Source: Bugula neritina (lineage: Eukaryota; Animalia; Bryozoa). From it: a stretch of DNA of 64,000 bases. The stretch's first letter is position 1, and each line of letters starts with the position of its first letter. Below are positions 13,347 through 43,466 of the stretch, piece by piece. The stretch is from positions 3,439,751-3,503,750 of the forward strand of contig OZ037773.1 of NCBI GenBank assembly GCA_964035545.1. Direction: 5' to 3'. A program made the position numbers and the translations under genes. The notes below the pieces were generated by a model. It saw only the letters and a list, made by a program, of their open reading frames with translations. It was not told where the DNA came from and did not search any database.

Positions 13347-13418
13347 TACCCCCACTTGAATTCGAACCCGAGACCTGCAGCTTGCAAGCAGGCGCACTAA
13401 CCATTACACCACGGGACT
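13347..13418 (-). repeat. tRNA-derived repeat (SINE head or tRNA pseudogene)
   Basis: Reverse strand has A-box tggtgtaatggtta and B-box ggttcgaattc, with a poorly paired anticodon stem. Related copies lie at 14042 and 51097. Confidence 0.6.
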
Positions 13419-14041
13419 ACTTGGTAAGCGCAACATTACAAGAGATAATTAATACATTGCACCAAGTATTGTCACTTTTTTGTAGTTCTAGATAATGTCG
13501 TACATGGCTAATTGTTAACAAAAGAAAACAGCTTTGACATAAAAAACCAATAGTTTATATTTTCATACACTTACTGTTTACTGCATGATACAAAACTTTG
13601 TAATATTTTATAATAATCATTGTCATTTCTATAGAAATACAACATATTTTCATGTTATTTGACTTGAAGTATGCATAACTCTCTCCTTTCCTGCTCATCG
13701 CCTCACACTTTATATCAGCCGGCTGACATCTTCCAGTCATGTATTTAGTGTGTTACCAATCTACTATAGTATCATTGAGTTTATGCGTATGTCACAGGCT
13801 AATTATAAACATCATAATTGAGAAAAACATTCTTATGTGATATAATTTATAATGCCTAGAGTTTTATCACATGACTCAGCTATTTCTGCAACACTTAGCT
13901 TGGGTGAGTCACCTGCATGATAGCCTAGGCGTATCTAAACTACAACATAATATGCTGTAGGAACCCGGAAACAACTGAAGCAGTCATATATGTCTCCCTC
14001 ACACTGCTAGAGAGTGTTTGACTTCCCTTTATAAAACTTTT

Positions 14042-14115
14042 GCCCCCACTGCATGGGATTCGAACCTGAGACTTCCGGTTTGCTAGCAGGCGCACTAATC
14101 ATTACACCACAGGAC
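14042..14115 (-). repeat. tRNA-derived repeat, same family as 13347
   Basis: Reverse strand reads gtcctgtggtgtaatgattagtgcgcctgctagc...caggttcgaatccc...gggggc. Confidence 0.55.
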
Positions 14116-15004
14116 TAATGGGTAAACTCAGCACTACACCCTCAGTTAGAGCTGTAGTATAAATGTGAGCTGCCTTATAATTCTAGTGTTATAGGTATAT
14201 ATTATGTAACGATTTTAAAGGGGTGAGTATTCAAAGTAACCAGACATTCAACATGGTTTGGGGTGTTCTGTATGAAGCAGCTTCAAGAGATACACAACAT
14301 GCATGTACAGCTTTAGCTCTCATCCAATCCTATCACCCCTCTGAGTTCAATGTAAAAATACATGAAAACAGAAAAACAGTACTGCGATATAATAATATTA
14401 CATAAAACAGTTCAAACTAATAACTATGGTGTTCATAAAATAGTTTATTTTAGTTGTTTATTATAATTATAATATTTGCCGATTCAATCCATAAAGTGAA
14501 CCAAAAACTTCTCAAGAGATACATTTCAAGAAGATGTACGTTATTATACATGTCACTTGTTTAAATTAGGTGAAATTAACTGATTGTTTCATAACTGGGG
14601 AGAAAGTCACCATTTTCTATTGCAAATTATCTCGATGTTGGATTTATAATATTATAAAGGCTGTGATTGGCTGTGATGCGGACGTTTTGTTAACCTCTAT
14701 TCAAGTTCGCTGAACCAATTAATGTTATTTATTAAGTCATGCGGCTCAACACACACATGTGACTCAACGCATGACTTTTCCGCAGTAAACATAACATCTT
14801 CGAAGCCCCTGCTTTTGACAGCCAGTGTCCAGTAGCGCCTCAGAGCTAAATGTGAAACTAGCAGGTTAGTAGATTATTCTATGCTTAGATTTGATTTGTA
14901 AGCTCAATTTGAATTGTTTGAATAATCAATCAATAAATCCTTTGAAATTGATTTATAATCATAATCATAATGTACTAACAGACAACAGTATAAGTATTAA
15001 CAAT

Positions 15005-15157
15005 AAGTGAATAACTATTACTATTAGTATTACTATTAGTATTACTATTAGTATTACTATTAGTATTACTATTAGTATTAGACTTCGTATTACTATTAGT
15101 ATTAGTATTGCTCTATTAGTATTAGTACTAGTTATAGACTAAGGCTATAGTAGTACT
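15005..15157. repeat. (TATTACTATTAG)-like AT-rich satellite, continuing at 19633-19740 beyond the LTR insertion
   Basis: Visible tandem repeats on both sides of the LTR element. Confidence 0.8.
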
Positions 15158-18100
15158 TGTTTTATGTTGATTTGTGATATTATTTCAGCTATCGTGAAAA
15201 GAGAGAACGTGCTCGAGTTAGTTGATAAACGTAAGAGGCCGAAGCCGTGATTTATTACCACAATATATATACAAGAAAATACTAAAACTATTACAATAAG
15301 TGAGACAATTAATTATTAAGATTATGACAAAAAATAGTAAAATAATAAAATAACAAATTACAAATAAATGTTTACATGAACACCGAACATCTCCCACAGA
15401 ATAGAAAAAAGCTATTTAGATATGATTGTTTTAAGAGGGCACATAGTCTGCCATCCAACTAGGTGGCTTCCGTTCTCTGGTTGAACGTCTTAGGTTGTCG
15501 CTATGATTGGCGCTCTCGGTGGTGTCAACCTGGGTACTACTAGCGTTTTGTTTAGGATCTTTTGGTGTCTCAGGACTCGCTGGCTCCGTGACGAGTGGTC
15601 TGATGTCTCGCCGGTTTCTCCGAAAGAGGTTGTTGTTAAGTTGTATGGCATAGGCTCTGCTACTCAATTGTCTGTTAATTTGCGCCTCCTGCCATTTTCT
15701 CCGGTGCTGACTCCAGTCTCGAACCAAAACTGGTTGCCCTTCTTTCAGCACTGCCAAATCTCTTGCACCGTCATTGCATCTCTGCTGCAGTTTTTCATTG
15801 CGGCCCTGCTTTTCCCACCAACCTTGGTTGTTCTCTGTTTCTGGCCGAACTTTCCGATAAGTTGCTGAATTGGGCTGGCCGTCAGGCCTTCTTTGGTGGT
15901 GTTGAGATGTTCCAGTAACGCAAGTTCGGGCTCTTCACATCTGCGGAGTATACGTTTGGCTATCTTCACAGCAGACTCTGCCTTCCCATTGGACTGAGAA
16001 TGATATGGAGAGCTGGTGGTGTGTGTGAAATTCCATGATTGGCTGAAAGTGGAAAACTGGTGCGAGGTAAACTGTGGTCCGTTGTCAGTGTGAACCTGTC
16101 TGGGTATTCCCAGGCGTCCAAAACAGCGCTTTATGGAGTTGATAACAGCCTCTGCTGTTTGGTTGTCCAGTCGGTCGTATTCAAGGTAGTCAGTCGTATA
16201 GTCAACAATAGTAATGTAGTGAGTGTGATTGTATTCAAACAAGTCAATTCCTACTTTGGTCCAGGGTTGTTGGGGAACTGTGTGGAGTAAAAGTGTTTCC
16301 TTCTGTTGCCGGGGAGCATCCAGTTGACATTGTCGACAGTTAGCAATATTGTTTTTGATGTCATTGGTGATGCCAAGCCAAAACACTGTGTGGCGGGCAC
16401 GTCTTAGTGTGGAGTTAATCCCATTATGGCCAGTGTGAAGTAGTTGGAGAAACTTTCTCTGGAGTGTCTTTGGAATAATGGCTCTTAGTCCTTTGTAAAC
16501 AATGCCATTGTCAATAGATAGTTCGTCCTGAAAGTGTTTGTACTTGTCATGAGTTGTGCAGTTGGCAATGTTCCAGTCATGTTTAATAAGGTTTGTCAGT
16601 GTCATAAGTTCATTGTCCTGTGCAGTAGCAGTCCTAATGTTGTCAATTAAGTCGTCACAAACAGGAGCATCATTATTTTGAGAGTCAATGTGAAAAATGT
16701 GTTCTGGTAGTTGTTGATAGTTGGGGGAGTCAAAGTATGAGTCTCTTGAGAGTAAGTCAGCCGTGATCTGTTCAGCACCCTTTTGCCAAGTTACCTTAAT
16801 GTTGGGGTATCTTTGTAAGTGAAGAAGCATAGCTTGCAACCTCCGAGATGCCTTATGAATGGATTTCCTGAAAATAGATACAAGGGGTTTGTGGTCAGTT
16901 TGGATAGTGACAGCATGGTGACCAAAGATATACTGGTCAAAGCGTTCAGTGCCAAACACTATGGCAAGGCACTCAAGCTCTAGTGGTACATAGTTCTGTT
17001 CCGATTTTGTTAAACTGCGAGATGCATATGCTACAGGCTTGCCTCCTTGCATGAGTGTTGCACCCACACCAGCATTTGAAGCGTCAGTTTGTATAGTTAC
17101 TGGCTTGTTGCAGTCAAAGTATTGTAGAGTTTCTGAGTCAGTTAGTAAGGTCTTCAGTCTATTAAAAGCGTTCATTTGGTCGTCAGTCCAGTGAAAGTCT
17201 TGAGCATTGTCTTGTGTCAGTAAACGTCGTAATGGTTCAGATTCCGATGCTAGGTTGCTAATAAATTTTGACATGTATGTGATGTGACCAAGGAACCGTT
17301 TTACTCCCTGTGGAGATGAGGGAGGTTTCATCTTAAGAATGGCTTTTACTTTGTTAGGATCTGGTTTAAGTCCATTAGTTGTCAGTATGTGTCCAATGTA
17401 AGGTAGTTCGTCCTGAAGGAAGCGGGATTTTTCCTTGTTCAGTCTCAGTCCTGTCTGTCGAGCACGTTTGAAGAGCGCTTCAAGGTTTCTATCATGCTCT
17501 TTCCTTGTGCTTCCGAAAATTAGGATGTCATCTGCAACTATGGTGATGCCATCAAGACCAGCAAGATTTTCCGTGAGCCTTCTCTGAAACTCCTCCGGCG
17601 CTGATGCAATTCCGAAGGGTAGCCTTAGGTACTTGTACTTTCCTATGGGAGTCCAGAAAGTTGTCAAGTCTGTAGATTCCTCAGCTAGGGGAATTTGATA
17701 GAAACCTTCTTTGGCGTCACACAAGGAGAAAAACTTGGCACCGTTGAGTTGTGGCAAAACATCTTCCAATGTTGGCATGACAGCGTGGTTTCGTTTAATT
17801 GCTTGATTGAGATTTTGCGGATCTATGCAGATGCGTATCTTTCCATTAGGCTTGCGCACTGGTTGTAGATGGCTTATCCAGTCTGTAGGTGCTTCTACCT
17901 TAGTGATAATTTGACGTTGTTCTAGTTCAAGAATAGTCTTGATGAGATCTGATTTCATCGACAAGGGCACCTTCCGCGGTCGGACTTGCACTGGTACAGC
18001 TTCAGGTCTTAGCTCTATCCTATATTCCTGTTCAAACTTTCCAAGTCCGGTAAATATGTCATCAAAGTTAGTCAGTAAAGTCTGAAGGTCTGGGTCAGTA

Positions 18101-19632
18101 GTGGCAAAGTTTACATTCTCGCTTTTGGTGCTGGGCATTTGTAATAAATCCAGGTGCAAACATGATTTCCATGACAGCAAGCTATGTTGGGTGGTTTCCA
18201 CAACTAGGAATTTTAATGTAGTGTAACATCCTTGCTTGTTTAGTATCTGTATCCGTGTCCACCCTAGTGGTGCACACTTGCTCTGGTCATATAAAGTTAG
18301 TACAGTATCAGTCGGTGTAAGTTTCGGTCTACCTAGCTTGTCGTAGTCGATCGTATTCAAAGTATTGCATGATGCACCAGTGTCAAGTTGGAATTCAATG
18401 TCATAAATAGTATCTGCTTGCTTAGCAGTGAGCATCGCTAATAATTTACGATCTCGTACAGTAGTGGAGATAGTACTTACATGTTGAGAGTCACTGTCTG
18501 AAGAGTAATTCCAGGTGACTTGATTGGCTGTTTCGGTTGAGTCGCGATAATGATGCATGCGTGACCTGCAGTATGCAGCAAAGTGGTTAAATTTCTTGCA
18601 ATGATTGCACTGTTTCCCATATGCTGGGCATGCTCGAGGTGGGTGATTGCCTCCACAGTTTCCACACCTAGAAGCACCAACTGATCTTCTGACGTTGGGC
18701 TGAGAGTGAGTATGTGAAAGTTGTCCTCTGTGTTTATCAGTGTTACGAGTGTCATTAGAGTGATATTGATGAGTCGGAGGTCTATGTTTTACCAAGTTCA
18801 CTTGTTCGAGTCCATATGTGTTATCCTTAGTCATAGTCTTGTAGTCAATAGCCGATGCTTCTTCTCGTCTGCAGAGTTCAATTGCTTTGTCAAAGTCAGT
18901 CAAGTCAAACAGTTTCTTTCTAATCTTGTCACTTTCAATTCCCAGTATCAGTGCTTGTAGTATCAGTCGGTTGTACATGTCTCTTAAGTCACATAGTCCT
19001 GCAATGGTATGTAGTTCAGTCAAAAATTCGTCAATAGTTCTATTTCCTTGCTTACAAGTCAGTAGTGAGTGAGTCTTAGCCACTAAGTTTATTCTTGGTT
19101 TGCAGTAGTCATCAAACTGCGTCACAACTTTGTCATAGTCAGTTTTGTCATTGTTGTCAGTCCAGTTGAAAGAGTCGTATATTTGGTTGCCTCGGCGACC
19201 GATAGTTCTAAGTAGGTATGCAGTTTTCACTTTGCCTTCGGCTGTATCTTTCGATGTGGCAGTTAAAAAAAGTTCGAAGTCACGTTTAAAAATCTTCCAT
19301 TCCTCAGGTAAATTCGGTCCATCTGCTAATGGTTTTGGCGCTAGTAATTGCTCCATGTTATTTCAGTGTAATATTAATAATAATTAGACTCGGGGCACCA
19401 TGTTTTATGTTGATTTGTGATATTATTTCAGCTATCGTGAAAAGAGAGAACGTGCTCGAGTTAGTTGATAAACGTAAGAGGCCGAAGCCGTGATTTATTA
19501 CCACAATATATATACAAGAAAATACTAAAACTATTACAATAAGTGAGACAATTAATTATTAAGATTATGACAAAAAATAGTAAAATAATAAAATAACAAA
19601 TTACAAATAAATGTTTACATGAACACCGAACA
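15158..19632 (-). mobile_element. Ty3/Gypsy LTR retrotransposon 1, near full length
   Basis: 232-bp TG...CA LTRs at 15158-15389 and 19401-19632, identical by eye. TSD is GTACT (5 bp). PBS TGGTGCCCCG matches the 3' end of elongator tRNA-Met (...CGGGGCACCA). A purine-rich tract (gtgggaga) precedes the 3' LTR. Confidence 0.97.
15745..19356 (-). CDS. Gag-Pol polyprotein (gag with Zn knuckles, protease, RT, RNase H, integrase)
   Basis: Motifs CGNCGGNH..C and CNHCKKFNH..C, LDTGASC, VADD, TDAS, HTGH..CRQC, IDLF/TDNGPQF/GKAE. The integrase C-terminal tail is shifted into ORF 15431-15757. Confidence 0.95.
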   Translation of the reverse strand: MEQLLAPKPLADGPNLPEEWKIFKRDFELFLTATSKDTAEGKVKTAYLLRTIGRRGNQIYDSFNWTDNNDKTDYDKVVTQFDDYCKPRINLVAKTHSLLTCKQGNRTIDEFLTELHTIAGLCDLRDMYNRLILQALILGIESDKIRKKLFDLTDFDKAIELCRREEASAIDYKTMTKDNTYGLEQVNLVKHRPPTHQYHSNDTRNTDKHRGQLSHTHSQPNVRRSVGASRCGNCGGNHPPRACPAYGKQCNHCKKFNHFAAYCRSRMHHYRDSTETANQVTWNYSSDSDSQHVSTISTTVRDRKLLAMLTAKQADTIYDIEFQLDTGASCNTLNTIDYDKLGRPKLTPTDTVLTLYDQSKCAPLGWTRIQILNKQGCYTTLKFLVVETTQHSLLSWKSCLHLDLLQMPSTKSENVNFATTDPDLQTLLTNFDDIFTGLGKFEQEYRIELRPEAVPVQVRPRKVPLSMKSDLIKTILELEQRQIITKVEAPTDWISHLQPVRKPNGKIRICIDPQNLNQAIKRNHAVMPTLEDVLPQLNGAKFFSLCDAKEGFYQIPLAEESTDLTTFWTPIGKYKYLRLPFGIASAPEEFQRRLTENLAGLDGITIVADDILIFGSTRKEHDRNLEALFKRARQTGLRLNKEKSRFLQDELPYIGHILTTNGLKPDPNKVKAILKMKPPSSPQGVKRFLGHITYMSKFISNLASESEPLRRLLTQDNAQDFHWTDDQMNAFNRLKTLLTDSETLQYFDCNKPVTIQTDASNAGVGATLMQGGKPVAYASRSLTKSEQNYVPLELECLAIVFGTERFDQYIFGHHAVTIQTDHKPLVSIFRKSIHKASRRLQAMLLHLQRYPNIKVTWQKGAEQITADLLSRDSYFDSPNYQQLPEHIFHIDSQNNDAPVCDDLIDNIRTATAQDNELMTLTNLIKHDWNIANCTTHDKYKHFQDELSIDNGIVYKGLRAIIPKTLQRKFLQLLHTGHNGINSTLRRARHTVFWLGITNDIKNNIANCRQCQLDAPRQQKETLLLHTVPQQPWTKVGIDLFEYNHTHYITIVDYTTDYLEYDRLDNQTAEAVINSIKRCFGRLGIPRQVHTDNGPQFTSHQFSTFSQSWNFTHTTSSPYHSQSNGKAESAVKIAKRILRRCEEPELALLEHLNTTKEGLTASPIQQLIGKFGQKQRTTKVGGKSRAAMKNCSRDAMTVQEIWQC

Positions 19633-20033
19633 GTACTAGTACAGTAGTACGAGTAATAGTAATACTAATACTAATAGTAATACTAATAGTACTAATACTA
19701 ATACTAATAGTAATTCTAATAGTGATACTAATAGATTATAGACAATAGACATGTATAGTTACTAGTAATAATAATAATTATATTTCATAATATTAATTAT
19801 TATTATTAATTATTTAATATAGCATGAAAGTTGAAACTAATTGAAAAAGCAGATAATAATTATATAATTAGTACTACTAAATCTAATACTTGTAATTTAT
19901 TAGATTAGTGAACCTTTCAGATTCTATCACTATAGAACTGGGTGCTTATAGTTATATTTATTTCTCATTTATCAAATGATTAAAATATTGACTGAATTTT
20001 GTTTAGAATTCTTTAACTCAAATCAAATTCGGA

Positions 20034-23000
20034 ATGGCAGATTCTAAAATAGTGAAAAAAAGGCTCAACAACTCCTATAGATGTGGCTACTGCCTACACT
20101 ATTTTAATGAACTGGGAGATCCCAGAACTCTGCCCTGCTTGCACGTCTACTGTATGAAGTGTCTCAAAACAGACATTGGCTACAAAAAGACTCACATTGA
20201 GTGCGCGTACTGCAGGTGAGTTGTACCAAGTTAGTGACCAACGGATATGATATCTTTTTGTGTGAGTGCATATTAGTTTTATTTTCTACCACTCATAGTG
20301 ACTTGTGTATCTTAAAAATGTTACTGGTTACTAGCTATTTGATCATCAGGAAAATGTCTGATTATGAAAGTTAAAGGTTACTGACTAACTAATACTATAT
20401 TTTAGGAAAAAATACTATGACATCACCGATCCTACTACTTTACCTGAAGCTAGGTTTGGTGATCCTTTGGAATATGAAGCTCTGCCCAAACCTGTAGGCA
20501 TTCCCTGTGATGTGTGTGAAGATGGAACAGGTGCTGTAGTGTTCTGTGTGGAGAGTGAGAAGAAGTTGTGTGAACAGCATCAGCAGGTGAGTTATGTGTT
20601 GACTGTAACCACTAGTCAGGGACATACTGATCAGTTATACTGAAGAATTCCGCTGTAGTATTAGGGAAAACATGTTGTGGCTGTATTTTTTTAGTGTATA
20701 ATACAGTCTTCTATGCTGCTGTTCTTACAATATATTATATATTCATGATCTAATATCGGTAATAAAATTAACTGTATTTTATAAGGAAGCATCAGTCAAT
20801 ATTCTCGTGTAGGGAGCAGCCGTGGTCTAGGGGCTAGAGCTTTTACCTAGTAAGCACAAAGTAATTGGTTCGAGCCCGACAAAGGCCATTGGTGACGTTA
20901 GGAAGAGCATCCAGTTTTAAATGCTCCTATGCTTCATCTAAATAAGTCCTTAGCCTGATTTAACAAAAAAAAACTTATATCAGGGGTTTTATCACAGGGT
21001 TATTGACTATAAACTTGAGTGAGTGAGTGAGTGAGTGAGTGAGTGAGTGAGTGAGTGAGTGAGTGAGTGAGTGAGTGAGTGAGTGAGTGAGTGAGTGAGT
21101 GAGTGAGTGAGTGAGTGAGTGAGTGAGTGAGTGAGTGAGTGAGTGAGTGAGTGAGTGAGTGAGTGAGTGAGTGAGTGAGTGAGTGAGTGAGTGAGTGAGT
21201 GAGTGAGTGAGTGAGTGAGTGAGTGAGTGAGTGAGTGAGTGAGTGAGTGAGTGAGTGAGTGAGTGAGTGAGTGAGTGAGTGAGTGAGTGGGTGAGTGAGT
21301 CAATATTTTCATGTGAATAACAACTCATTCTTATCCTACTAGCTGTGATTCAACTGTATTTCCTGTTGTCAGAACCATGACACACACATGAAGATCTACA
21401 GCAACATCACACATCACTTTATTCCAATTGACCTCTACACATCATTTCCACAGCGTTACTCCAGTATGAAATGCGAACATCATGAACAACATCAGCTGAT
21501 GGAGGCGTGTACCAAGTGTCACCAGAGATTCTGTATTCGGTGTGACTCTAAGAGTGGATGTAGCAAAGCAACAGGTAATTTCATTCTTTTATTTTCAGAA
21601 TTTTTTCATTTTGTAGAAGCTCTATTTAGTCTTGGAAAACACAATTATTTATACTGAGAATAGCCTGTATTCAGGTCTGGTCACAGAATAGAGCTTAGTC
21701 TAAAATAGCTGATGCAATGTATTTCTTGAGATAAACTGGTGAGTGTTATTTCAAAAGGAAAAGCAGCTTCTCACAACGTGACATCGATGGGCGATTTATC
21801 CCGTGAACTAAGAGACAAGCTGACTGAAGAAATGAAGATTCTGTCTGAGAAGATTTCAGAGTTGAATGACATATCAAAGGATGCCTGGAGACAGCTCAGT
21901 AAAATAGAAGATGATGTGAAGAAGATGTTTGCCAGAGTATATGCTACAGCTAATGCAAAGGTTGGCAGACATGTTTGTAAATAATATAGAGAACTATTAT
22001 GTAAATTCACAGCATGATTTACTCTATAAAACTGTAGTGACTGAAACTTTACTCACAGAACTTTGAAAGTTTTATATTCACTCTGCATGGTCTGTACAGT
22101 CGCTAAAGTAAAGCTGTGTAGTTTTTTTGCTGTTTGAATAGAACTTTCTGAAACTTTGCAGTAATATGTATGAAATTACGTGTTTACTATGCATATCAGT
22201 TAGACTACGGTCCCTATGCTATGTGATTAATATCTAATGTTAGGCTGCACATTCTTGTTGTTTATCCAAATTAATTGTGCAGTACGATATTTTATTTGTA
22301 CTCAGAAATCAGCAGCCGTTAACCCACACCATCTTGTGTGCAAGTAGCAGTAGCCATTCATCACGTGTCAGTTTGTGCAGGAGAACCTGTCAATACAGGC
22401 AACACACTCATCCTTCTGCAACTGTCAATTACTCAACCAGGGAGGTTAGCTGTGTTAGTGATTGACAGGTTGCAGAAAGTGACTCGTCACGTGGTGTGTC
22501 ACATGACTGAGTGCCTACTCAGTCATGCACTGTCACTGTAGAGGTTGTGAGTGCCAATGTGGTTATAATGTGTTACTATTTATTAGATAGAGGAGATTAG
22601 AAAGAGTGCTGAGGAACTGAAGGATGAATTATCGGAATATTTGAGAAGCAGCACAGAGATGGTGGTTAATTTTAGATATGACCTGGCAGTGAAACATGGT
22701 GTTGATAAGTTGTCTCTGGTGGACGGAGTACAACATGCAGTTGATAAGTTCAATGATGCAGAGATTGTGAGAGACTACAAAGAGATGAGTGAGAAGATGG
22801 AAAAGGTGTTAAATATCAGAATGATAGAGAAATGCTCCGTTCCCTGCAAATTCTGGGCACCTGCAGGTATGTAGCATTGATAGACAGATTCCTTAACCAC
22901 AAATTTATTCAGAATGTCATAAGAATTTATTCACAACTTTTCACTTGAAACTTTTATTGATATATACAGCAATTTTTATTATATTTGTAGCAACTGTGGG

Positions 23001-24423
23001 CCTCATTTTCTTATAATTATATCATTTAAGTTATTCTTTTATTTAGCAAAAGTTCTCGTAAAAATCTGAGGCATATATTTTATTTTGAGTGTGTGTCGGC
23101 TCTGCTACACGTTTTCTTTATTTGTATTTGAAAAGCTGTTCTCCACCTCCTCGGGAGATGAGATTCTCAAATTAGAGAATGTTATTTTGTTGTTGCAGAC
23201 AGTGAAGACTGTCTGGGACTAAAGCTAGTGAACGTTGGTACAGCACCAGCTTCTCTACAGTTTGATGGACTTGTTGTACATGGCTCGCATTACATAGTAA
23301 ATGTCACAGCTGATGAGGCTCTGATGTGTCGAACTGTGGAAGGTATAGAAGTAAGAAATAGACACACTCTGGATACCATCAGCTCAGTGAGGAACACCAA
23401 CGCTACAGAGTGGGAAAAGATCATTTATTCTGGAGGGGTGGTGGTTGGCAGTTGTTATAATAAGAAAGAAAAAACAGCTGAAGTCACACTTCTTGATCCG
23501 AACTCTTTAAATAAGTCTCGCTCTCTGTATAAACAGTCAGTAGGCGCACCGACCATCTATAGTTTAGCCCAGCAACTGTCTCTAGTCTACATTCTAGACT
23601 GGAGAAAGAAACAGCTGCTAGTTTATAATCTGATAGATGATAAAATACAGATGTTCCCAGTTCCTAGGATAAAGAACCCTCATTCTGTGTGCATCCTCCC
23701 AGACTCAACTCTACTCATAAAAGACTTCACTGCAGATGGTGGAGTGAGTAGATATAAATTGGAGAATACAACTCTAACTCTAATGTGGGAGTTTCCCCAC
23801 ATCTCACAGCCAACTGGTATTTCCTTTGATCCAACATCAGAACTGATTCACATTTGTACACTGCGTGGGCCTCTCCTCATTCTCTCGCTTGAAGGTAACT
23901 AAATAATGTGCCTGTTATAGTTAGTTGAGTAGCTTTAATAAAATATGGTGAAAATTAGTTTTTAATAGTTATCTGTCAACAACTTCCACTCATAGGCTAT
24001 ATTATGATATTGTTGAATTGTTTTATAAGCAGCTCCGAGTTGGTGGTGAATGAGTGCAGTAGTTTGGGTGGTCTCGAGTTTGAAGTTATGTCCCCAACTC
24101 CAAACGTCCCGAACTACTGCACTCATTCACCACCAACTCGGAGCTGCTTATATAACCATTCAATATTGTTAGCAAGTACTTGGCTCTGAGGCTAGTTTAT
24201 AATAATTAGTATTTCATGGAAATGTTTTCCAGTAATTTTAGAAGTGCCCAGTTCAACAACTGTACAGTCTTGTGTTATTTTATTTACAGGTAAACTGTTG
24301 AAAACAATTACCAGAGAAAGTTTTAGGGTGAGGAGTTATGTGTATGACATTGCTGTGTACAACGGAGGCAAAATGTTTCTAGCATGTAGAGATGGACTAA
24401 GAAGATACACATTAAAATACTAA
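20034..24423 (+). CDS. TRIM-like protein: RING, two B-boxes, coiled coil and C-terminal NHL-like beta-propeller
   Basis: Exons 20034-20215 (C3HC4 RING), 20406-20586 (B-box1 CDVC...), 21373-21574 (B-box2 CEHH..CTKC..CIRC), 21758-21960 and 22587-22867 (coiled coil), 23199-23894 (NPHSVC, QPTGISFD) and 24290-24423. Phases are consistent. Confidence 0.88.
20812..20915 (+). repeat. tRNA-derived SINE fragment (intronic)
   Basis: gcagccgtggtctagggg (A-box) and ggttcgagccc (B-box), followed by cattggtgacgttaggaagagcatccag. Confidence 0.55.
21016..21300. repeat. (GAGT)n microsatellite in a TRIM intron
   Basis: About 70 near-perfect units. Confidence 0.99.
24015..24161. mobile_element. Hairpin MITE, Mutator-like (same family as 49158)
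   Basis: Long inverted arms (tataagcagctccgagttggtggtgaatgagtgcagtagt) and flanking 9-mers gatattgtt / aatattgtt. Confidence 0.8.
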
Positions 24424-27216: not shown

Positions 27217-28090
27217 ACTGATACTTATGTCCGATTTGATTGCAACATGTATCCCTAAACGATACAACAAAATACATATAACTTATAAGCATTCATTAAG
27301 TTTTAATCTTTTCACAATACTATTAGTATTACTATTACCAATAGTAATACTATTGACTATCAGTATCACTATGATTTATGTTATGACTTATCATCATAAT
27401 TTATAAGTATGACTATGAGTGATCCGAATCGTAACGGTAATGCCAAGCCCAATGGACATGTGTAGTAATTTGTGCAATTACTGAGCGTGAGTTATTTACT
27501 TGCGTATAGTTAGCTGGTTATTCTGTTATCAATTACTAAGGTAGCTGTCGAGTAATTATATTTATTATCCACAATAAAGCATAAACCAAACATCACATCA
27601 AATTATCCTATATAAGAGTCAACTACTAACACATGTTACTACTACAAGCCTCCGCTTACAACAACGTGATATAATGTTAATAACCCGGGAAGTGTCACGT
27701 GACTCGGAAGCATATCTTCCGGAGCTGCTAATTGGTTACTACATAAGAGTCTAAGTATTCCAAGAATAGGGAGAGGGCGATTCCTGTATTTGTACTTGCA
27801 CTACTCACTACACCGTCCCCCCCAGCAGAAAGCCCTACTTTCTGATAACACAATAAAAAAACATAATGAAAAACCATACAATAATCCAAAAAGGAAATAT
27901 TCATAAGTAAACCCACAAAGAGTAAGAAAAGAAATAGTTAAACACGACAACGTTTACATTAGAAGACAACAGGGTGATCGATCACACACATCTAGTCAGC
28001 TATTAAGAGAGAGGGTGCTTACCAATGTCGGAGCGCTCGTCACATCCTAAACGAGCTATAGCTCAACGAAGGTGCCTATCCCAGGCATTC

Positions 28091-29143
28091 TCATTGGTTG
28101 GACTCTGCTTCTTGTAGCGACCGTGCTCTGTGTCGAGCCTGTCGGGCCCGTAGCCGCCTCTTCAGTCGTCCCACTGAGTCCTTCAACTGGTATAGACCTG
28201 TCGTCGTATCCAGCAAGTCAGGGGCAAGTTGTGTGAACTCGGCTTGCAGTCTTAGAAGCCGCTCTTCTACGTTAGCCAGCTGGCTAGGCCTTGGTGGGGT
28301 TATAGGGGTCTCCGTTATACGGGATATGGTTGTTTCTTCTACTTCTGGGGTGTTGCTAGGGTTGACGGGGGTAGGAGGTGGGCCCTGAACCATAGGGGAC
28401 TTATGGCGGGCAGATAGTAACAGTACGTGAAACCCTGACGTTAGTGCGGCCAGGGTAATAGCCTTCCTGATGACTGGCTTGATGTCATCCAGGTATAGGG
28501 GGAAACTGTCTTCATCAACAGTGTGGTTCTCTCCGGCGAAGCAGCTTAGCTTATGTACTGTCACGGGATACGGGTAGACGTCGTGGAACCCGCAGGGACA
28601 GAAGTGGAGTAGGACATGGGCATCTACATGTAAACGCAAGGAGCGGTGCGACGGGCACTCCTCAAAGCAGACCTGGCAGGTTCGGTGTGGTCCACTGGGT
28701 CCCCAGGCTTCTTCAATTCTCCTCTCTGTCGTGGGTGACACCCAACGGTGTCGTCGGCGGAGTACTACTGGTATGCCATTCTCCATTACAGGCTCTTCTT
28801 CCATAGACAGAGAGGTTGGCTGGTCCCGTGACCGGGAGGTGGTCACTCGAGTGTGATCTGAAAGAGTAGCAGTGTTAAAGATTATACACTGAGACACCGT
28901 CGGCGTGTACAGCCTGACCGGTACTCTGTTCAGTTACACTCGTGAGATTCAGGCTAATGAATAGTTGATGGAGAACACACTCGCTATGACAGATTATTTA
29001 AAATCAAAGTCGACGTGTATTCCCACCACTGTTTATCATTATCGAATCTCCAGCTAGCTAGTGTAGCTAAGCTGACTGATGCAGTCTAGTTATCGTACCA
29101 AAAACATAATTAACTCACCCTTCGATCCAGAATAGTAAGACAT
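28091..29143 (-). CDS. Accessory ORF3 of element 2: C2H2 zinc finger, Arg-rich and coiled-coil protein, probably two exons
   Basis: Exon 29143-29119 (ATG..AAG G|GTGAGT) joins in phase to acceptor ctctttcag|AT at 28857. The protein has CQVC-x12-HVDAH then CPCGFH, and a heptad-like tail ending RLKRRLRARQARHRAR. Confidence 0.7.
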
Positions 29144-29166
29144 TTTGGAATGAGAGTGGTAACTGA

Positions 29167-31527
29167 TTACTGTTTACTGGCACGTCTACTCTCGACTGCA
29201 TCAACATAGGAAAAGACCGGACAGCGTGGTTGTGAAACGTGACTAGGGCTTTTCACTTCCAGCGGATGAATCTCGTGTGAGATTCCGCCGAGGCAAAAGT
29301 TGAGATTCTCGTGGTGATCACAACTCCCACGGCTCTTTGCCTGTTTTCCCATGCGAGGCCTCTCTAGACTTTTGTTACTGCCGCTTATACCGCGGTCACG
29401 TACACAGTCTCTGAGACACGCTGGAAGTTGCCTAGTGTGTGGTGCTGGTCCTATGTTGGCATCTCCTTGCGGAGCCCCTCCCACGGGGGGTTTTTGCACT
29501 TCCGGACCTGTTTCTGGTTCCGGAAGTGGTGATGATGGCAGGCTTGACGTTGGGGGCGGTGGGCGCACTTTCAAGGACGGAAGTGGCCTTTCTCGCCTCG
29601 CCAAGTCTTCCTGACGTGTCATGGAGGTGTTTCCGGCCAGGTTGACAGTCTCCGCCTGCCGAGACCTTCTCGCACAATGCGTCTGCCGCCCCGCTTCACC
29701 AGGGAGACGGCTATGCTTGTTGGTCTGGCAGACTTTGCACCGTCTCACTCTGCGTCGGATATCCCGTTCCATGTTAGGCCAGTACCACCGGAGTTGTAGC
29801 TTGGTGACCACCCCTTGGACTCCTCCGTGAGTCTCCTCGTGGGTGTCTTGTATCAACTTCCGGCGGATGGCAACTGGGCAGACAACCCTCTTCCTGGCTG
29901 GCTGTCCGCTGTTGGCGGCCAAGGTCATGGTTAGCAGACCATCTGGCCCGACCCGCAGAGAGCTCCAACGTTGACAGTACAGCCGTAACTTGGCGCATCC
30001 CTGTCGCCGTTGTGTACTACTGGGTCGTCGCCCCTCCTGTTTCGCTCGGTACACGTCGGCTACCACCCCAGGAAGGCATTCCTGGAGCTTCGGCAGCTCC
30101 CTAACGTTACCAGCCCATACAGGTTTGGCGCGGAGGCTCTGGGCAGCCTCCGGGGGCGTGTCAGCCCTCTGTTGAAGTGGCTGAGCAGGGGCGGTCCTCA
30201 CCGCCCGTGGTACCTCACGGCAGCCTGCTCTATTTAGGCGGGCTCCGTGGTCTGTGTGGCTGAACGCCTCACTGTACCCATGTGGCAACCTAGCCATAGC
30301 CTGGCACTTCCCGTTGCCTGTGCAGCCACGCGTCCCTGGAGGAGGGGAGGCGTGGGTTGGGACGGTCCTCCGCCCTCGAGACGGGCTCTGCTGAGGACCT
30401 TCCGTCGTAGCTCCCGACGACGGCCCAATGGCTTCCTCCTGGACAGGATGGAAGCGACCCAGCATGGATCTGGGTGGTAGGTCTACTGTCTCTGAGAAGG
30501 GGTTGACACACTGCACTGAGATCTCTCCTTGCCCCGTGAGCCGGCTAAAACTACGGGCAAGTTGGACTCTCGAGTGCGTACTTTCGACAACTCCCAACTT
30601 AGAGGTTTGGCCACCGTCTACCTTGCAGCGGACGGTAGCCCGGGAGTGGCCTGGTATAGTACAGCTCCGTACTACCTGCACTGCTCCCGCTAGAGGACGA
30701 CCAAACTTATCGACACAAGCGAGCTCCTTGTCGCCCATGATTATCGCAGATTTACTGAAATCGATGCGACAACCGTGTCGTTGTAAGAATGGCATCCCGA
30801 GGATAGCATCCTCGTTGAGCTGCCCGACGATAAACGTCTCTTGGATGGCCTGGTTACGGACGTAACCAGTTAGCTCAATAATGCCGTAGAAGGGAATGCA
30901 CGACCCGTCTGCCAAGGTGCCGTGATCCCCCTCGTACGGTGCCAACCTGTCCTTGACCTTAGCGCTGAGGGTGTCAAAGAACTGACGGCTAAGGAGGTTG
31001 GTGGTGCAGCCGGAGTCCAGGAGGAAGTTGGCAGGCTTGCCGGCTAACTTCCCTGGCAGGAAGTAGCTACTTCCGTGCGGCTGCAATTGAGTGTGCCGTG
31101 GTTGCACCTCCCTCGCTGTGGGTCGAGGGGTCCACGGTTGGCGGCGACTATTGACCAGCTGCCGAGGTTGGGGCGGTACGCCTTGCGGCGCTCGTACCGT
31201 TTCCCTCGCAGGCTCTGTGGTCAACCGTCTGCCGGCTCCGTGTTGGTGCCGGAGTGGCGTAGAGGACCCAGGCGGCGAGTGGCTTGAGCCTACTTGCCGC
31301 GGGGGTCGCCACTTCACAGCATCTCCGCGCGGCGCCCAGCGGGGCGACAGACGCGCGGGCCTCCCTGGGTGATTCACAGACGGCCCGCAGGAGGTGGGAA
31401 CATCTGCGGGCCGGGGTAGTTTAACCCTGGTGGGAGTTGAGGGCAGTTTCTCTGGAAATGTCCTGGCCTTCCGCATTCCCAGCAGAAGTGGTGCCCCATG
31501 TCTGGTGATTGTACCTGCGGCCCGCAA
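29167..31527 (-). CDS. Internally deleted pol of element 2: protease plus integrase H2C2 domain only
   Basis: LLDSGC and ILGMPFL (protease), and THEETHGG..YWPNM..CKVC. No YxDD, RNase H or DDE core. The ORF is in the -1 frame relative to gag. Confidence 0.85.
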   Translation of the reverse strand: MRAAGTITRHGAPLLLGMRKARTFPEKLPSTPTRVKLPRPADVPTSCGPSVNHPGRPARLSPRWAPRGDAVKWRPPRQVGSSHSPPGSSTPLRHQHGAGRRLTTEPARETVRAPQGVPPQPRQLVNSRRQPWTPRPTAREVQPRHTQLQPHGSSYFLPGKLAGKPANFLLDSGCTTNLLSRQFFDTLSAKVKDRLAPYEGDHGTLADGSCIPFYGIIELTGYVRNQAIQETFIVGQLNEDAILGMPFLQRHGCRIDFSKSAIIMGDKELACVDKFGRPLAGAVQVVRSCTIPGHSRATVRCKVDGGQTSKLGVVESTHSRVQLARSFSRLTGQGEISVQCVNPFSETVDLPPRSMLGRFHPVQEEAIGPSSGATTEGPQQSPSRGRRTVPTHASPPPGTRGCTGNGKCQAMARLPHGYSEAFSHTDHGARLNRAGCREVPRAVRTAPAQPLQQRADTPPEAAQSLRAKPVWAGNVRELPKLQECLPGVVADVYRAKQEGRRPSSTQRRQGCAKLRLYCQRWSSLRVGPDGLLTMTLAANSGQPARKRVVCPVAIRRKLIQDTHEETHGGVQGVVTKLQLRWYWPNMERDIRRRVRRCKVCQTNKHSRLPGEAGRQTHCARRSRQAETVNLAGNTSMTRQEDLARRERPLPSLKVRPPPPTSSLPSSPLPEPETGPEVQKPPVGGAPQGDANIGPAPHTRQLPACLRDCVRDRGISGSNKSLERPRMGKQAKSRGSCDHHENLNFCLGGISHEIHPLEVKSPSHVSQPRCPVFSYVDAVESRRASKQ

Positions 31528-32324
31528 GGCTCACGGGCAGTATCTACCTGGCTTGGGGAGGCTAATGTGGTGACCAGTTTATCTAGCATGTCAGTCATCT
31601 GTGAGATTTTTGACGCTAGTGACATCTGGTTCACATTAGCCACCGCGGAGGGTTCCGCATTTACTTCGGTGTGAGCAGTAGAGTGCTCCGTGGTCACCTG
31701 GCGGGAGGCCACGCGGTTGCGGTGCATATGAGTCGCCAAGAGATAGGCTTCTCCCACCGCAAGTGCATCTTCGACTGTGGTGACTCCCCTCGCTTGGAGT
31801 TGATGGTGGAGCCCCAAGTCGTTGATGGACTGCACGAAGGCATCATAGGTATACCTCTCACGGTGTACCGGAGGCAGATCGCGGAATGCGATCTGCGCTA
31901 ATGGGTACACCGTGGCAGCGTGCTCTTCTAGTGACGTGTGAGGATCACGCCGCATCCTCTGCAGACGGGCCCGCGCATCTATGGGAGAGATGCCAAAACG
32001 GGCCCGCAGGGAAGCAAAGATTCCGTCTATGTCAGGTCCAGCTCCGTACGGCTTAGCTTTGCCCGTCAGCGCCATCCTGAGCTTTAGCAACGCCACCCTT
32101 GGCGGCCATTCTGCAATCTCCATCACATCTTGGAATTCTTGAATAAACTGCTCCACTGCTTCTTCGCCAGTGAAGGTGGGCGCCTTCAGCCGGTATCTAT
32201 CTTCACCATGCTCTCTAAGAATTCTCACTTCTTCATCTAACACCACTGGTTCCACAGGTATATCAACATTATCTCTCTCACCTTCATTCAGTGGAATGGG
32301 TAGCTCCGTGCCGTCTTCTGCCAT
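31374..32324 (-). CDS. Gag of element 2
   Basis: Capsid-like region (APTFTGEEAVEQFIQEF) and CCHC knuckle CWECGRPGHFQRNC. First ATG is at 32324. Confidence 0.9.
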   Translation of the reverse strand: MAEDGTELPIPLNEGERDNVDIPVEPVVLDEEVRILREHGEDRYRLKAPTFTGEEAVEQFIQEFQDVMEIAEWPPRVALLKLRMALTGKAKPYGAGPDIDGIFASLRARFGISPIDARARLQRMRRDPHTSLEEHAATVYPLAQIAFRDLPPVHRERYTYDAFVQSINDLGLHHQLQARGVTTVEDALAVGEAYLLATHMHRNRVASRQVTTEHSTAHTEVNAEPSAVANVNQMSLASKISQMTDMLDKLVTTLASPSQVDTAREPCGPQVQSPDMGHHFCWECGRPGHFQRNCPQLPPGLNYPGPQMFPPPAGRL

Positions 32325-33712
32325 GACTGCTATACGCAAGATCCCACCGCTGCCACCACTGTAGTAATTTGTGCAATTACTGAGCGTGAGTTATTTACTT
32401 GCGTATAGTTAGCTGGTTATTCTGTTATCAATTACTAAGGTAGCTGTCGAGTAATTATATTTATTATCCACAATAAAGCATAAACCAAACATCACATCAA
32501 ATTATCCTATATAAGAGTCAACTACTAACACATGTTACTACTACAAGCCTCCGCTTACAACAACGTGATATAATGTTAATAACCCGGGAAGTGTCACGTG
32601 ACTCGGAAGCATATCTTCCGGAGCTGCTAATTGGTTACTACATAAGAGTCTAAGTATTCCAAGAATAGGGAGAGGGCGATTCCTGTATTTGTACTTGCAC
32701 TACTCACTACACATGGTTATGGTTTTAGCAGATCACAACTATTTTATTTCTTTTGCTATTGTTCGTTAATTATTAAATAATAATTTTTAAATTTTTAGTC
32801 ATCACTTATTAAAAACATCTACATAAAGACACGTAGTGAACTATTATACTTACACTCGTATTTATTTATTAATATTGATAATTATTATTATATACTAATA
32901 CTAATAGTAATACTCGCACAGTAAATTTCAGGGCTTGTCAATACAATTATAGCGGAACTATATTAAAGGTATAAAACGGGACTGGTTGTACATTGTGACT
33001 GTTTTGCAAACCTTAGTAGCTCACTATTTTTATTTAAAAAAAATACGAAATGACAGTAATATGTAATAGTCTAAGTAGATTTCTAGCGAGCCTGACTTTA
33101 GCAGATATTCTTCATATCCTAGATCTTTATTGCACATCTGACTGTCCAAGAGTTGAAGTGGAAATTCAACTAGTCACGATATATGAATTTAACTAATACA
33201 GCCCTGATGTCACAGAACTTTTTAACTGATCTGTGAGTAAAGGTAAAGTTATTCATTTGACTTTTACATATACTAAATTTGTTTCTAAGACTTTTTTTAA
33301 AATAATAGATATCATAATCAAATTCAATATCAATAATATTAATAATTAAATTTAATATCAATATGATAATGAATATGAGAGTTCAATATGAATATGAATA
33401 TCATAAATGATAATGATAATTCATAATCGTAATGATAATCAATAATCATACAACTTACTCTTACAGTTACTCTAACTCTTCCTCTTGGTCTTAGACTTAG
33501 AGTTAGCCACTGAGTTGGCCTTATGGCTTATGGTTGCTGGTAGTATTACACTTACAGTACAGTTAGTGTTACACTTTGACTTACAGTTACTGTTACACTT
33601 ACTGAGTGTTAGTGTTACTGTTAGTGTTAGTGAAGTGTTGCATTTATTCATACTGTTTATCATAATTATAATATTATACTAAATTAATACTTGCAGTATT
33701 ACTATAAGTTAA

Positions 33713-40119: not shown

Positions 40120-43100
40120 TGCTATGTATTGAACTAGCCTTGTCAATACACCACATAGATGCATATTATGACATACCACATTTTATGTGCTCGGTTACTT
40201 TTTTATTCTAATGTCTATTTGTTTAAACTCATTATATACAGTTTTTGCCATATCAATATACAAGCCAGTTGTTATTCTGTCACTGTTTATCTACATGTAT
40301 TTTTATGTCAGTCACTTGTTAGCTTCAATACAATACAGTCATACATTCTACTCTACAGCCAATTTTACTTATACGTGCTTAATCTTACTGTTTACTCTTG
40401 TTTAACATAAATAGCAAGAACACAACAACTGGTGTCAGAACTGGGATAGATACAGCCATATCATTTTGAAATGGAGGAAATTATAAAACAACTTGTAACA
40501 ACAATGCAGCAACAACAGCAGCAGCAGATGGAGCAATTCGCTCAAATACTGGGACAATTTACTACAGCTGTAAAGCCTGGTGAACCTGCACAAAATAAAT
40601 CTGTAACTGTGCCTAGATTCGACTCTTATGACAGAGACAAGGAATCATGGACTCAGTATTTACAGCGGCTCAATCAACACTTTACCGTTTACAACGTAAG
40701 TGACGGTGAACAAAAACGAGCTTGCTTACTTTCATGGATTGGCTCAGAATGTTATGAATTGCTGACAAAACTGTATGGCTCAGAGGACATAACTACCATG
40801 ACGTTCGATAATCTAGCAGGTAAGCTTAGCACACATTTTATTGAAACAAAACATGTGCAAGCAGCTAGATATCAGTTTTATAACTGTAAAATGAAACCTA
40901 ACCAGTCATACTCAGATTGGGCAGCTGATTTACGGGGTTTAGCTCGTAACTGCAATTTTACCTGTAAAAAGGAAGACTGTGGTGAAAGTTATGTTGATGA
41001 TCAAATCCGTGACATAATTATTAAAGAAACTCCACATGCTGATGTACGTAGACAATGCTTATTGGATCCAGATCCTACACTGGAAAATGTGTTAAAGAAG
41101 GCAGCTACATACATTCAAACAGCAGAAACTGATAAAGTTTTGAAGGGTGAGACCTCTACACCTGTTACCACAAATCAAATGTCCTCAACATACAAACGTC
41201 AAAACAAAGGTAGTCAGGGCAAGAGACCACAATTTCACAAGTCTGAAAACCAGACTGCTATGCCAACACAGCCTTCCAAGTTGAAATCGTGTCCACAATG
41301 CTACATTAGCCACGATCGTAAACAATGTCCTCACCGTAACAAACAATGTAAGCTGTGCAACAAAACAGGACATATTTCTAGCGTCTGCAAAACTTCATCA
41401 AAATCAAGTGGGAACAACTCTCACTTCGTAGAAGAATCTTCAAGTAGTGTTTACAATATATATGAACGCAAGGGGAAACAAATATGGATTAACACTACTG
41501 TGAACAACAAACAAACACAATTTCAGTGGGACACAGGCGCTACTTGCTCTATGGTAGGGAACAAAGGCTACGAAGCCCTAGGCTCTCCACCATATCAACA
41601 GACAGACACGACCCTTCATTCATATGGAAATACCGCTATGCAGGTACATGGTGAATGCTATGTAACAGTAACCATTGGTCAGACTACAAAAAACAATCTT
41701 CGATTATTAATAGTAGACTCAGATGAAGGTGTCAACTTACTAGGTGTAGACTGGAGTGACAGTTTTGGACTATCACAACAGGGTCTATCTGCTGTAGACA
41801 GTGACACCGAGGTTACTAACGCAGTACACAATGTTGATACTAAGGTCAAAGTTCTCACAACAAAATATCCCGATGTTTTCAAACCTGGAATGGGACATTG
41901 TAAAACATTCAAAGTACCAATTTACCTCAAATCAGAACATAAACCTTGTTTTTCTAAACCTAGAGAAATCCCCTATTCTCAACATGAGGCCACTAGGGCT
42001 GAATTAAACAGGCTTGAAGCTGAAGGTGTCATACAACGTATTAACTTCAGTAACTGGGCCGCTCCTATAGTAGTGGTTACCAAACCGTCTGGCAAAGTTC
42101 GCATCTGTGGAGATTTCAAGCGACTCAATCAGTGCATCTCCATAGATCAGCATCCACTACCAAAACTGGATGATTTAATGAACAGGCTTAGAGGAGGTAA
42201 ATTCTTCACCAAACTTGACTTGGCTGATGCTTACCTACAACTTGAGCTAGAAGATGATGCCAAACAGCTGTGTGTGATAAACACTCCATTCGGATTATAC
42301 CAATATAATAGAATGTGTTTTGGAATTGCCCCTGGTCCAGCTCAGTTTCAACGGTGTATGGATACCTTGACTCAAAAATTACCAGGAGTTGCTGCATACC
42401 TTGATGATTTAATCATTACTGGTAAAACGGAGGAAGAACACTGGACTAATCTGACAAACCTGCTTTCAACACTTCAAGAGCATGGTTTTCGAATACGATT
42501 AGACAAGTGTGAATTCTTCAAGCACTCTGTTGAGTATCTGGGTCACACCATCGACAAGGATGGCAAACGACCAACAGCTGCTTCCATGGCAGCTCTCTCT
42601 CAATTACCTCGACCACAGGACTTGCACCAACTGCAAGCATTTCTAGGAAAGGTTAACTACTATGGGCGCTTCATCTCTAATCTTGCGGATAAAGCAGCTC
42701 CACTGTACAAGCTCCTCAAGAATGATACCACATTCACATGGTCAAATGAATGTGAACAAGCCTTTACCCAGCTGAAGAATAGCATTATCAATGCTACTAG
42801 TCTGACACACTATGATGAGACAAACCCCCTAATTCTTGCAGCCGATGCGTCATCCTATGGATTAGGAGTTGTTCTCTCGCAGGATACTGATCAGAGAGAA
42901 GTTCCAGTGGCTTACGCTTCAAAAACAAGGAAATGCTATCTACATAGTACAAACAGACAGTGGCAACTGGAAGAGGCATGCTAATCAGCTTCAAATTCGC
43001 CTTCCATCTACAAATATGAACAAATCAGTGGTACCCAACACACCCCAAGCTGATAATAATATTGTCCATCCTCATGAGAGGCGCTATCCAACCAGAGAGT

Positions 43101-43466
43101 GCAGACAGCCAGATTGGTACAAGCCATAACTCTTAAGTCTAAATTTGTGAGGGAGGAGTGCTATGTATTGAACTAGCCTTGTCAATACACCACATAGATG
43201 CATATTATGACATACCACATTTTATGTGCTCGGTTACTTTTTTATTCTAATGTCTATTTGTTTAAACTCATTATATACAGTTTTTGCCATATCAATATAC
43301 AAGCCAGTTGTTATTCTGTCACTGTTTATCTACATGTATTTTTATGTCAGTCACTTGTTAGCTTCAATACAATACAGTCATACATTCTACTCTACAGCCA
43401 ATCTTACTTATACGTGCTTAATCTTACTGTTTACTCTTGTTTAACATAAATAGCAAGAACACAACA
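40120..43466 (+). mobile_element. Ty3/Gypsy LTR retrotransposon 3 with integrase deleted
   Basis: 308-bp LTRs at 40120-40427 and 43159-43466 with one difference seen. TSD is TTATA (5 bp). PBS TGGTGTCAGAACTGGGAT is tRNA-Leu(CAA)-like. PPT is gagggaggag. Confidence 0.97.
40471..42984 (+). CDS. Gag-protease-RT-partial RNase H polyprotein (truncated)
   Basis: Motifs CKLCNKTGH..C, WDTGATC, YLDD and ADASSYG. The ORF breaks after VAYASKT, and only the integrase tail survives in another frame (RHANQL..RYPTR). Confidence 0.92.
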   Translation: MEEIIKQLVTTMQQQQQQQMEQFAQILGQFTTAVKPGEPAQNKSVTVPRFDSYDRDKESWTQYLQRLNQHFTVYNVSDGEQKRACLLSWIGSECYELLTKLYGSEDITTMTFDNLAGKLSTHFIETKHVQAARYQFYNCKMKPNQSYSDWAADLRGLARNCNFTCKKEDCGESYVDDQIRDIIIKETPHADVRRQCLLDPDPTLENVLKKAATYIQTAETDKVLKGETSTPVTTNQMSSTYKRQNKGSQGKRPQFHKSENQTAMPTQPSKLKSCPQCYISHDRKQCPHRNKQCKLCNKTGHISSVCKTSSKSSGNNSHFVEESSSSVYNIYERKGKQIWINTTVNNKQTQFQWDTGATCSMVGNKGYEALGSPPYQQTDTTLHSYGNTAMQVHGECYVTVTIGQTTKNNLRLLIVDSDEGVNLLGVDWSDSFGLSQQGLSAVDSDTEVTNAVHNVDTKVKVLTTKYPDVFKPGMGHCKTFKVPIYLKSEHKPCFSKPREIPYSQHEATRAELNRLEAEGVIQRINFSNWAAPIVVVTKPSGKVRICGDFKRLNQCISIDQHPLPKLDDLMNRLRGGKFFTKLDLADAYLQLELEDDAKQLCVINTPFGLYQYNRMCFGIAPGPAQFQRCMDTLTQKLPGVAAYLDDLIITGKTEEEHWTNLTNLLSTLQEHGFRIRLDKCEFFKHSVEYLGHTIDKDGKRPTAASMAALSQLPRPQDLHQLQAFLGKVNYYGRFISNLADKAAPLYKLLKNDTTFTWSNECEQAFTQLKNSIINATSLTHYDETNPLILAADASSYGLGVVLSQDTDQREVPVAYASKTRKCYLHSTNRQWQLEEAC

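Follow-up and report, generated by a model that had tools for sequence, protein, structure and literature searches.

A zinc-finger accessory gene with a predicted coiled coil in the env slot of a non-autonomous Gypsy-type LTR element of the bryozoan Bugula neritina, and evidence for its splicing from two first exons

The element and its gene content

The window, the whole 64,000-nucleotide stretch of Bugula neritina DNA analyzed here (OZ037773.1, positions 3,439,751 to 3,503,750), carries on its minus strand an LTR element of 5,251 bp (27461-32711; Table 1), whose LTRs are 100% identical with TG...CA ends and which is flanked by a 4-bp target duplication, CATG, with copies at 32715-32712 and 27460-27457. 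Pfam profile searches of pol detected an aspartic protease and a Gypsy-type integrase zinc finger only, the protease matches falling slightly below the curated cut-off, and found no reverse transcriptase (RT), RNase H or integrase core (rve) in the window copy. The paired LTRs, target duplication, primer-binding site, polypurine tract and CCHC-bearing gag are those of a Ty3/Gypsy element, but the PR-RT-RH-IN order is not kept by this copy, and since its pol lacks RT, RNase H and the integrase core, we class the element as a young Gypsy-type derivative that is non-autonomous. RT and integrase would be supplied in trans by an autonomous relative; enzyme-bearing kin exist, since the gag relatives P0247 and P0307 carry RNase H (RT_RNaseH) or integrase-core (rve) domains. 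In run X1 the summed depth over the element body, which is not a copy number, was mostly 8,000-31,000 vs ~107-116 on the flanking contigs, and this points to a repeated family. Past its usual end motif, the deleted pol has a tail (29460-29167, minus strand) that is still open, three of the four variants listed there being synonymous, and a perfect 10-bp palindrome with an E-box core, GTCACGTGAC, is present in both LTRs (32602-32593 and 27703-27694), upstream of the TATA-like box.

The env slot, which separates pol from the 3' LTR, is occupied by a third gene, ORF3, which encodes 263 aa when a micro-exon is joined to its exon 2 and ends in a stop at 28091 (residues are numbered here by exon 2, from the Asp at 28858). 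The first-pass annotation had held that this gene is not env, and we agree: ORF3 has no hydrophobic segment, its maximum 19-residue hydropathy being 1.43, and an Env identity, which calls for a signal peptide and a transmembrane anchor, was therefore rejected. Errantivirus env, which is expressed from a subgenomic RNA spliced from a gag donor, takes the same slot but is a membrane protein. No Pfam family matched exon 2.

Table 1. Coordinates of the LTR element, its genes and the ORF3 features within the window
Feature	Position	Strand	Details or basis
5' LTR	32360..32711	-	352 bp; TATA-like at 32513, AATAAA at 32465; identical to 3' LTR
Primer-binding site	32341..32358	-	18 nt starting TGG, 1 nt past LTR; from sequence
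gag, 316 aa, CCHC knuckle	31374..32324	-	zf-CCHC E 5e-5; 119 homologs
ORF3 first exon A, first 14 Gag codons + 1 nt	32282..32324	-	phase-1 donor AAG/GTGAGA; P0011
pol, internally deleted, Pro-rich tail	29167..31530	-	Asp_protease_2 E 9e-5, Integrase_H2C2 E 1e-14
ORF3 first exon B, micro-exon MSYYSGSK + 1 nt	29119..29143	-	phase-1 donor AGG/GTGAGT; exact X1 joint
Short intron, 261 nt	28858..29118	-	3' end common to the 3424-nt gag-donor intron
Predicted 107-nt RNA hairpin in intron, candidate cis element	28944..29050	-	z -5.2
ORF3 exon 2	28091..28857	-	254 codons + stop; internal Met at 28804
Folded two-finger domain (model)	28379..28783	-	N-terminal Trp-helix, two fingers, C-terminal helices; pLDDT 91, pTM 0.85
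Finger 1, C-x2-C-x12-H-x3-H	28678-28616	-	ligand conservation
Finger 2, C-x-C-x12-H-x3-C	28600-28541	-	ligand conservation
Pro/Thr/Ser linker, predicted disordered	28283..28384	-	modal residue frequency 0.49; pLDDT <50
61-residue coiled-coil-like helix	28100..28282	-	predicted helix 193-253, pLDDT 83-97; modal frequency 0.84
Polypurine tract	27813..27823	-	from sequence
3' LTR	27461..27812	-	352 bp; identity to 5' LTR

Domains, conservation and linkage of ORF3

The C2H2 finger noted in the first-pass annotation stands as finger 1, with conserved ligands, whereas the second cluster, which it read as CPCGFH..H, is incorrect: finger 2 is formed by C87-x-C89 and H102-x3-C106 (CxC-x12-H-x3-C), C87 and C89 being invariant and H102 at least 90% conserved in 36 close and distant sequences. 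Among 120 homologs the ligands are kept in 83/85 (C61), 82/90 (C64), 82/96 (H77) and 90/97 (H81) for finger 1 and in 94/98 (C87), 93/98 (C89), 100/101 (H102) and 111/116 (C106) for finger 2. All eight are kept in only 56 of the 82 homologs that span both fingers, so many of the records are decaying copies. The RRRHRW sequence, taken earlier for a free Arg-rich motif, lies within the predicted folded domain and distant relatives retain only its Trp; a reading as a Rev-type motif was rejected. Of the Pro/Thr linker and the C-terminal heptad region noted in the first-pass annotation, the former is poorly conserved and predicted disordered, the latter a predicted coiled-coil-like helix that is acidic first and then basic (net +8 over the last 25 residues). 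Modal residue frequency outside the linker is 0.72-0.84, finger 2 and the terminal helix being highest (0.84). As for Rev/Rex-type features, ORF3 has this basic tail and a single export-like pattern at 139-148, in a helix of the domain, no classical export signal being found in ORF3 outside the folded domain; six S/T-P sites are also present.

The 135-residue domain, modelled from 83 sequences, resembles the classical tandem C2H2 proteins (SALL, Kaiso/ZBTB, CTCF) in its finger spacing and two-finger geometry. It differs from them in the CxC...HxxxC form of finger 2 and, in the model, in the enclosure of the finger pair by extra helices as one compact domain, for which no full-length match was obtained. 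The window ORF3 does not match Pfam zf-C2H2, 12 of the 83 family members match zf-C2H2_4 weakly, and P0158 passes the curated cut-off of zf-C2H2 (27.7 vs 27). The ESM Atlas returned unnamed clusters and weak C2H2 leads, and no second copy of the domain occurs within the 64-kb window.

It is possible, although we would not put it first, that ORF3 is a dimeric zinc-finger DNA-binding regulator of the LTR or internal DNA, which would activate transcription or block host silencing, foamy-virus Tas and VANC being the role models for such a DNA-level activator or anti-silencer. The classical finger spacing, the profile matches to SALL3 (E 4e-5) and HIC2 (E 7e-4), the R-D that distant relatives keep where the second helix begins and the helix with its basic end all point this way, as do the overlays of the model on DNA-bound finger pairs of SALL4 (residues 32-83; Z 3.5, rmsd 2.9, 51 residues), Kaiso (Z 3.8, rmsd 3.6, 59 residues), ZBTB38 and CTCF. 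However, these overlays (VIA-align) all have Z below 4, with a top Z of 3.9 and none reaching 5, and the C2H2 pairs rank level with unrelated helical proteins; Foldseek of the model against the PDB and viral models gave nothing below E 0.001, a result that says nothing on fold novelty. In addition, the helix of finger 2 carries prolines at positions +1 and +3 in the window lineage, finger 1 is without the usual aromatic core residue and the domain is without net positive charge.

A protein search returned 131 close homologs of ORF3, 45-99% identical among the 120 listed, and an unfiltered search gave 78 representatives with identities down to ~25-35%. Among the 40 best-supported of 89 variants in run X1, 24 fall in exon 2, where 14/24 are synonymous against an expected 25-31% and 0 are stops (p 0.0006-0.006; rough omega 0.24-0.33); the corresponding counts are 10/16 in pol and 4/6 in gag. 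These variants were classed one by one, are non-independent and were drawn from relatives down to 80% identity, so the selection may predate the pol deletion, and the protein collections are biased towards open frames. The synonymous excess supports purifying selection on ORF3, and not the neutral dN/dS that the first-pass annotation had set against its own proposal; with the 131 homologs, it led us to reject a chance ORF.

The earlier view that ORF3 is element-borne, and not a one-off transduction, agrees with indirect evidence of its linkage to gag. Of the 36 ORF3 homologs on contigs of at least 4 kb, a threshold picked after the lists were seen, five lie on a contig whose size exactly equals that of a contig bearing a gag homolog (null mean 0.30; 0/20,000), and over all sizes the match is not significant (5 observed vs 2.2 under the null, p 0.07). 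Two records are themselves joined to element genes, P0096 being fused to the pol tail (E 3e-15) and P0011 carrying the gag start. The equal size (1926) of the distant P0168 and the gag homolog P0317 was set aside, as both genes would barely fit one contig. Locus searches of metagenome contigs and viral contigs found no relative, and a weak search restricted to 1044-2980 aa found no longer fused forms of ORF3.

The only named relatives come from the bryozoan Watersipora subatra (XP_067940964.1 / XP_067940963.1, XP_067944745.1), in which two RefSeq genes with isoforms carry the domain. Host exons do get transduced by LTR elements, and ORF3 could be a captured host zinc-finger gene, a passenger useless to the element. 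We consider this highly improbable, however, given that the Watersipora proteins are ~31% identical to ORF3 and, with other distant homologs, fall outside the clade of the window copy in the domain tree (47 rows, midpoint root), that the purifying signal and gag linkage extend over relatives 45-99% identical, and that a donor in gag appears conserved to serve ORF3; an ancient host origin is possible. RSP-type motifs, which would suit an RNA-level role as do the S/T-P sites, precede the helix in 6/33 distant homologs listed. Two distant homologs, P0130 and P0158, have two tandem copies of the finger domain with one terminal helix, and P0130 is a Watersipora RefSeq gene and a candidate domestication.

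Two first exons and the intron of ORF3

A scan of the whole sense strand gave only two consensus donors, one in gag (after 32282) and one after 29119, each of them phase 1 and each leading in frame into exon 2. The micro-exon has its ATG at 29143, 24 nt past the pol stop, and is 25 nt long with the donor directly after it, and the 261-nt intron is 41% GC (vs 55% in exon 2 and 60% in pol), contains stops in all three frames (6, 6 and 8) and ends with a branch-like TTAAC at 28878 and the acceptor CTCTTTCAG/AT at 28857. The micro-exon, its GTGAGT donor, the AT-rich intron, the acceptor at 28857 and the in-frame join had all been described in the first-pass annotation, and every coordinate is confirmed; a contig of run X1 adds the 29119/28857 joint to this splicing claim, and what had been overlooked is the second, gag-borne first exon with its donor at 32282.

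One of the 12 joints listed for 28000-29300 in run X1 falls exactly at 28857/29119, skipping 29118-28858 with GT..AG ends at a depth of 843 (vs ~107-116 on the flanking contigs), a position that a random joint would match with a chance of about 3e-5, or 1.5e-4 if limited to the intron region. It is carried by one contig whose short side has 29 letters, below the tool's 31-letter mark, and this short side, 30 letters counting an ambiguous base, is probably what a unitig yields at a merge. Run X1, which is possibly the window's own source and whose type is unrecorded, has contigs up to 59 kb and evenly covered non-coding flanks. It is likely DNA rather than RNA, so that the intron-less joints would be copies made from spliced RNA, spliced element RNA being now and then reverse-transcribed and re-inserted under this model. 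Depth at the joint compares with 11,000-21,000 alongside it, and since the joined form is such a small share of the depth, mostly unspliced RNA would have been copied. Apparent intron-less copies of this kind form a record of splicing that is read without RNA data.

For the gag-borne first exon the witness is P0011, 65% identical to ORF3, in which 12/14 of the Gag N-terminal residues run straight into D-H-T-R of exon 2, matching the join expected from the donor at 32282. This one record of the 120 homologs examined attests the join at protein level, and the 15 X1 joints listed, out of 28, do not include it; with the donor it places ORF3, as an env-slot exon spliced to a gag-derived 5' exon, in the manner of CERV. 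Judging from the residues, 21/22 gag homologs with a matching N-terminus are compatible with a GT donor at this spot, and the residue preceding exon 2 is S or L in 32/36 homologs that extend this far, the pattern to be expected from a conserved YAG. Splicing of ORF3 from two donors is supported by these sequence data. Translation through an in-frame intron was rejected, as the stretch upstream of the acceptor changes frame among relatives; unspliced translation from the internal Met at 28804 is possible. In 28850-29110, most other X1 joints have one or both ends within the intron (at depths of 9-1478), which would be expected where length is free to vary.

The Gag N-terminus on one isoform might also suggest that ORF3 acts in the particle or cytoplasm as a packaging chaperone, a Gag partner or a decoy for a host restriction or piRNA factor, with fingers that bind protein. 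The diverged recognition helix would suit such a helper, as would an RT-less family in which gag, protease and ORF3 are all retained and show a comparable excess of synonymous variants (4/6, 10/16 and 14/24). Just 14 Gag residues are held in common, however, and the basic tail and finger type would suggest the nucleus, so we regard this role as improbable.

The intron also contains a predicted RNA hairpin, a candidate cis element that none of 200 shuffles equalled in stability and that is more stable in the sense than in the antisense orientation (-39.8 vs -30.7 kcal/mol). The element as a whole is rich in structure, with 20/86 windows below z -1.8, that of the hairpin among them, and low-depth X1 copies delete parts of the hairpin; an Rfam search gave no match. 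Other strong predicted structures on the minus strand (31931-31812, z -5.0; 31091-30972, z -3.3; 30251-30132, z -4.1) lie in gag and the deleted pol and are packaging-signal candidates.

Possible role, precedents and neighboring features

To our knowledge, the export of intron-containing RNA and the evasion of host silencing are understood for very few LTR elements, and for most env-slot ORFs a role has yet to be assigned. Genome-length RNA of this element has working splice sites yet joined forms are scarce, and the element therefore needs a means to retain and export unspliced RNA. Our preferred reading, which we hold tentatively and at somewhat less than an even chance, is that this Gypsy-type lineage has long carried ORF3 as an accessory gene, spliced to 14 gag codons or to the micro-exon, whose product is likely nuclear and would allow the intron-containing RNA of the element to avoid splicing and leave the nucleus, in the manner of CERV. 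The protein would oligomerise via its terminal helix, be taken into the nucleus by its basic tail and bind element RNA, for which the intron hairpin is a candidate site, and a message spliced by default would yield the regulator first and full-length genome RNA later. Against this RNA-level role, which we rank narrowly ahead of an LTR-binding activator or anti-silencer, stands the finding that the best overlays of the fingers are with tandem C2H2 pairs bound to DNA, which points to DNA.

The closest precedent for the gene plan, which the first-pass annotation had not named, is cerv of the Caenorhabditis elegans Ty3/Gypsy element Cer1, with a different protein; Cer1 is the one Gypsy element that we found for which such export has been worked out. 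According to its description, CERV is needed for export of unspliced RNA and has 517 aa, five exons, a C4-type loop, a G-protein-like domain and no homology outside nematodes (PMC10309623). Both cerv and ORF3 are non-env ORFs that follow pol and precede the 3' LTR, spliced onto gag-derived 5' exon(s), and both proteins combine a Cys finger, a zipper or coiled coil, a basic cluster and S/T-P sites (PMC10309623). In contrast, ORF3 has ~265 aa with a C2H2 + C2HC pair, can begin with either of two first exons and belongs to an RT-less element, and the H, M and G domains of CERV, as far as the published description goes, differ from our model (PMC10309623). The function of CERV is established in that account, whereas that of ORF3 is assigned by analogy (PMC10309623).

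Bdelloid rotifer LTR elements likewise carry varied non-env genes in the env slot, reportedly from spliced messages, and the non-autonomous TelKA2n retains its own ORF3 despite losing most of pol, but these ORF3s are env-like, GDSL lipase or DEDDy nuclease, and the word 'zinc' is absent from the available text of the paper (PMC5408684). The MDG1-group sORF2 is also an extra gene of a Gypsy-type element but, in the accessible portion of the preprint, is a membrane protein with transcripts that lack splicing, unlike ORF3 (bioRxiv 10.1101/2025.03.14.642691). Plant additional ORFs located after pol and before the 3' LTR are, like ORF3, conserved family-wide, and some are nuclear with a proposed retroviral-accessory-like action, but they are env-like or antisense and the portion of the article available mentions no zinc finger (PMC7264820). 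Surveys of metazoan errantiviruses (PMC13524379) and of annelids (PMC8220671) report, in the sections available, no zinc-finger accessory gene. The first-pass annotation had not recognised the gene as described, and our full-text literature search, with subscription papers, Repbase-type annotations and supplements mostly outside its scope, likewise found no C2H2-type env-slot gene, nor anything on Gypsy LTR retrotransposons of bryozoans. ORF3 is thus a known kind of gene with an undescribed protein family, spliced, conserved and element-borne, for which we infer the function. The first-pass interpretation is partly supported, in that ORF3 is no env gene, sits in the element lineage, is spliced and bears a purifying signal; the nucleic-acid-binding regulator that it proposed is a candidate role.

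If our preferred reading is true, the cerv/rev gene plan would have been invented independently in ORF3, on a C2H2-type scaffold. Since ORF3 is small, intact and conserved, its new domain is modelled with confidence and its two junctions are defined, the question is directly testable. A wider scenario, rather unlikely when taken whole, is that of an old, undescribed class of complex-retrovirus-style regulators in invertebrate Gypsy elements, in which a two-finger/coiled-coil protein from two alternative first exons would switch the element from spliced RNA to RNA of genome length, a high-copy family without RT would supply Gag, protease and the regulator to its autonomous partner, fully spliced RNA would give 1.8-kb regulator-only mini-elements, and the domain would have been taken over as host genes in Watersipora.

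Several other features lie in the window. Exons of a DHHC palmitoyltransferase (26926-26767 and 25235-24828, minus strand) lie just downstream of the element on the same strand, and exon 26926-26767 opens in phase 1, as does ORF3 exon 2; if the element sits in an intron of this gene, in-frame capture of a host exon could occur, and an upstream exon of the DHHC gene was looked for in the flank and not found. A 246-aa beta-propeller-like ORF (23162-23902, plus strand) has no Pfam match, and an intronless seven-helix receptor-like ORF (3968-4918, minus strand) lies in a ~8.5-8.9-kb duplication (507-3041 / 9057-11949). A second young LTR element (15158-19632, minus strand) has 232-bp LTRs that are 100% identical, a GTACT duplication and one 1205-aa gag-pol frame in which RT, RNase H and integrase motifs were read by eye; its gag is unrelated and it has no ORF3 domain. 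A third (40120-43466, plus strand) has 308-bp LTRs that are 99.7% identical and an 844-aa gag-pol frame stopping within RNase H.
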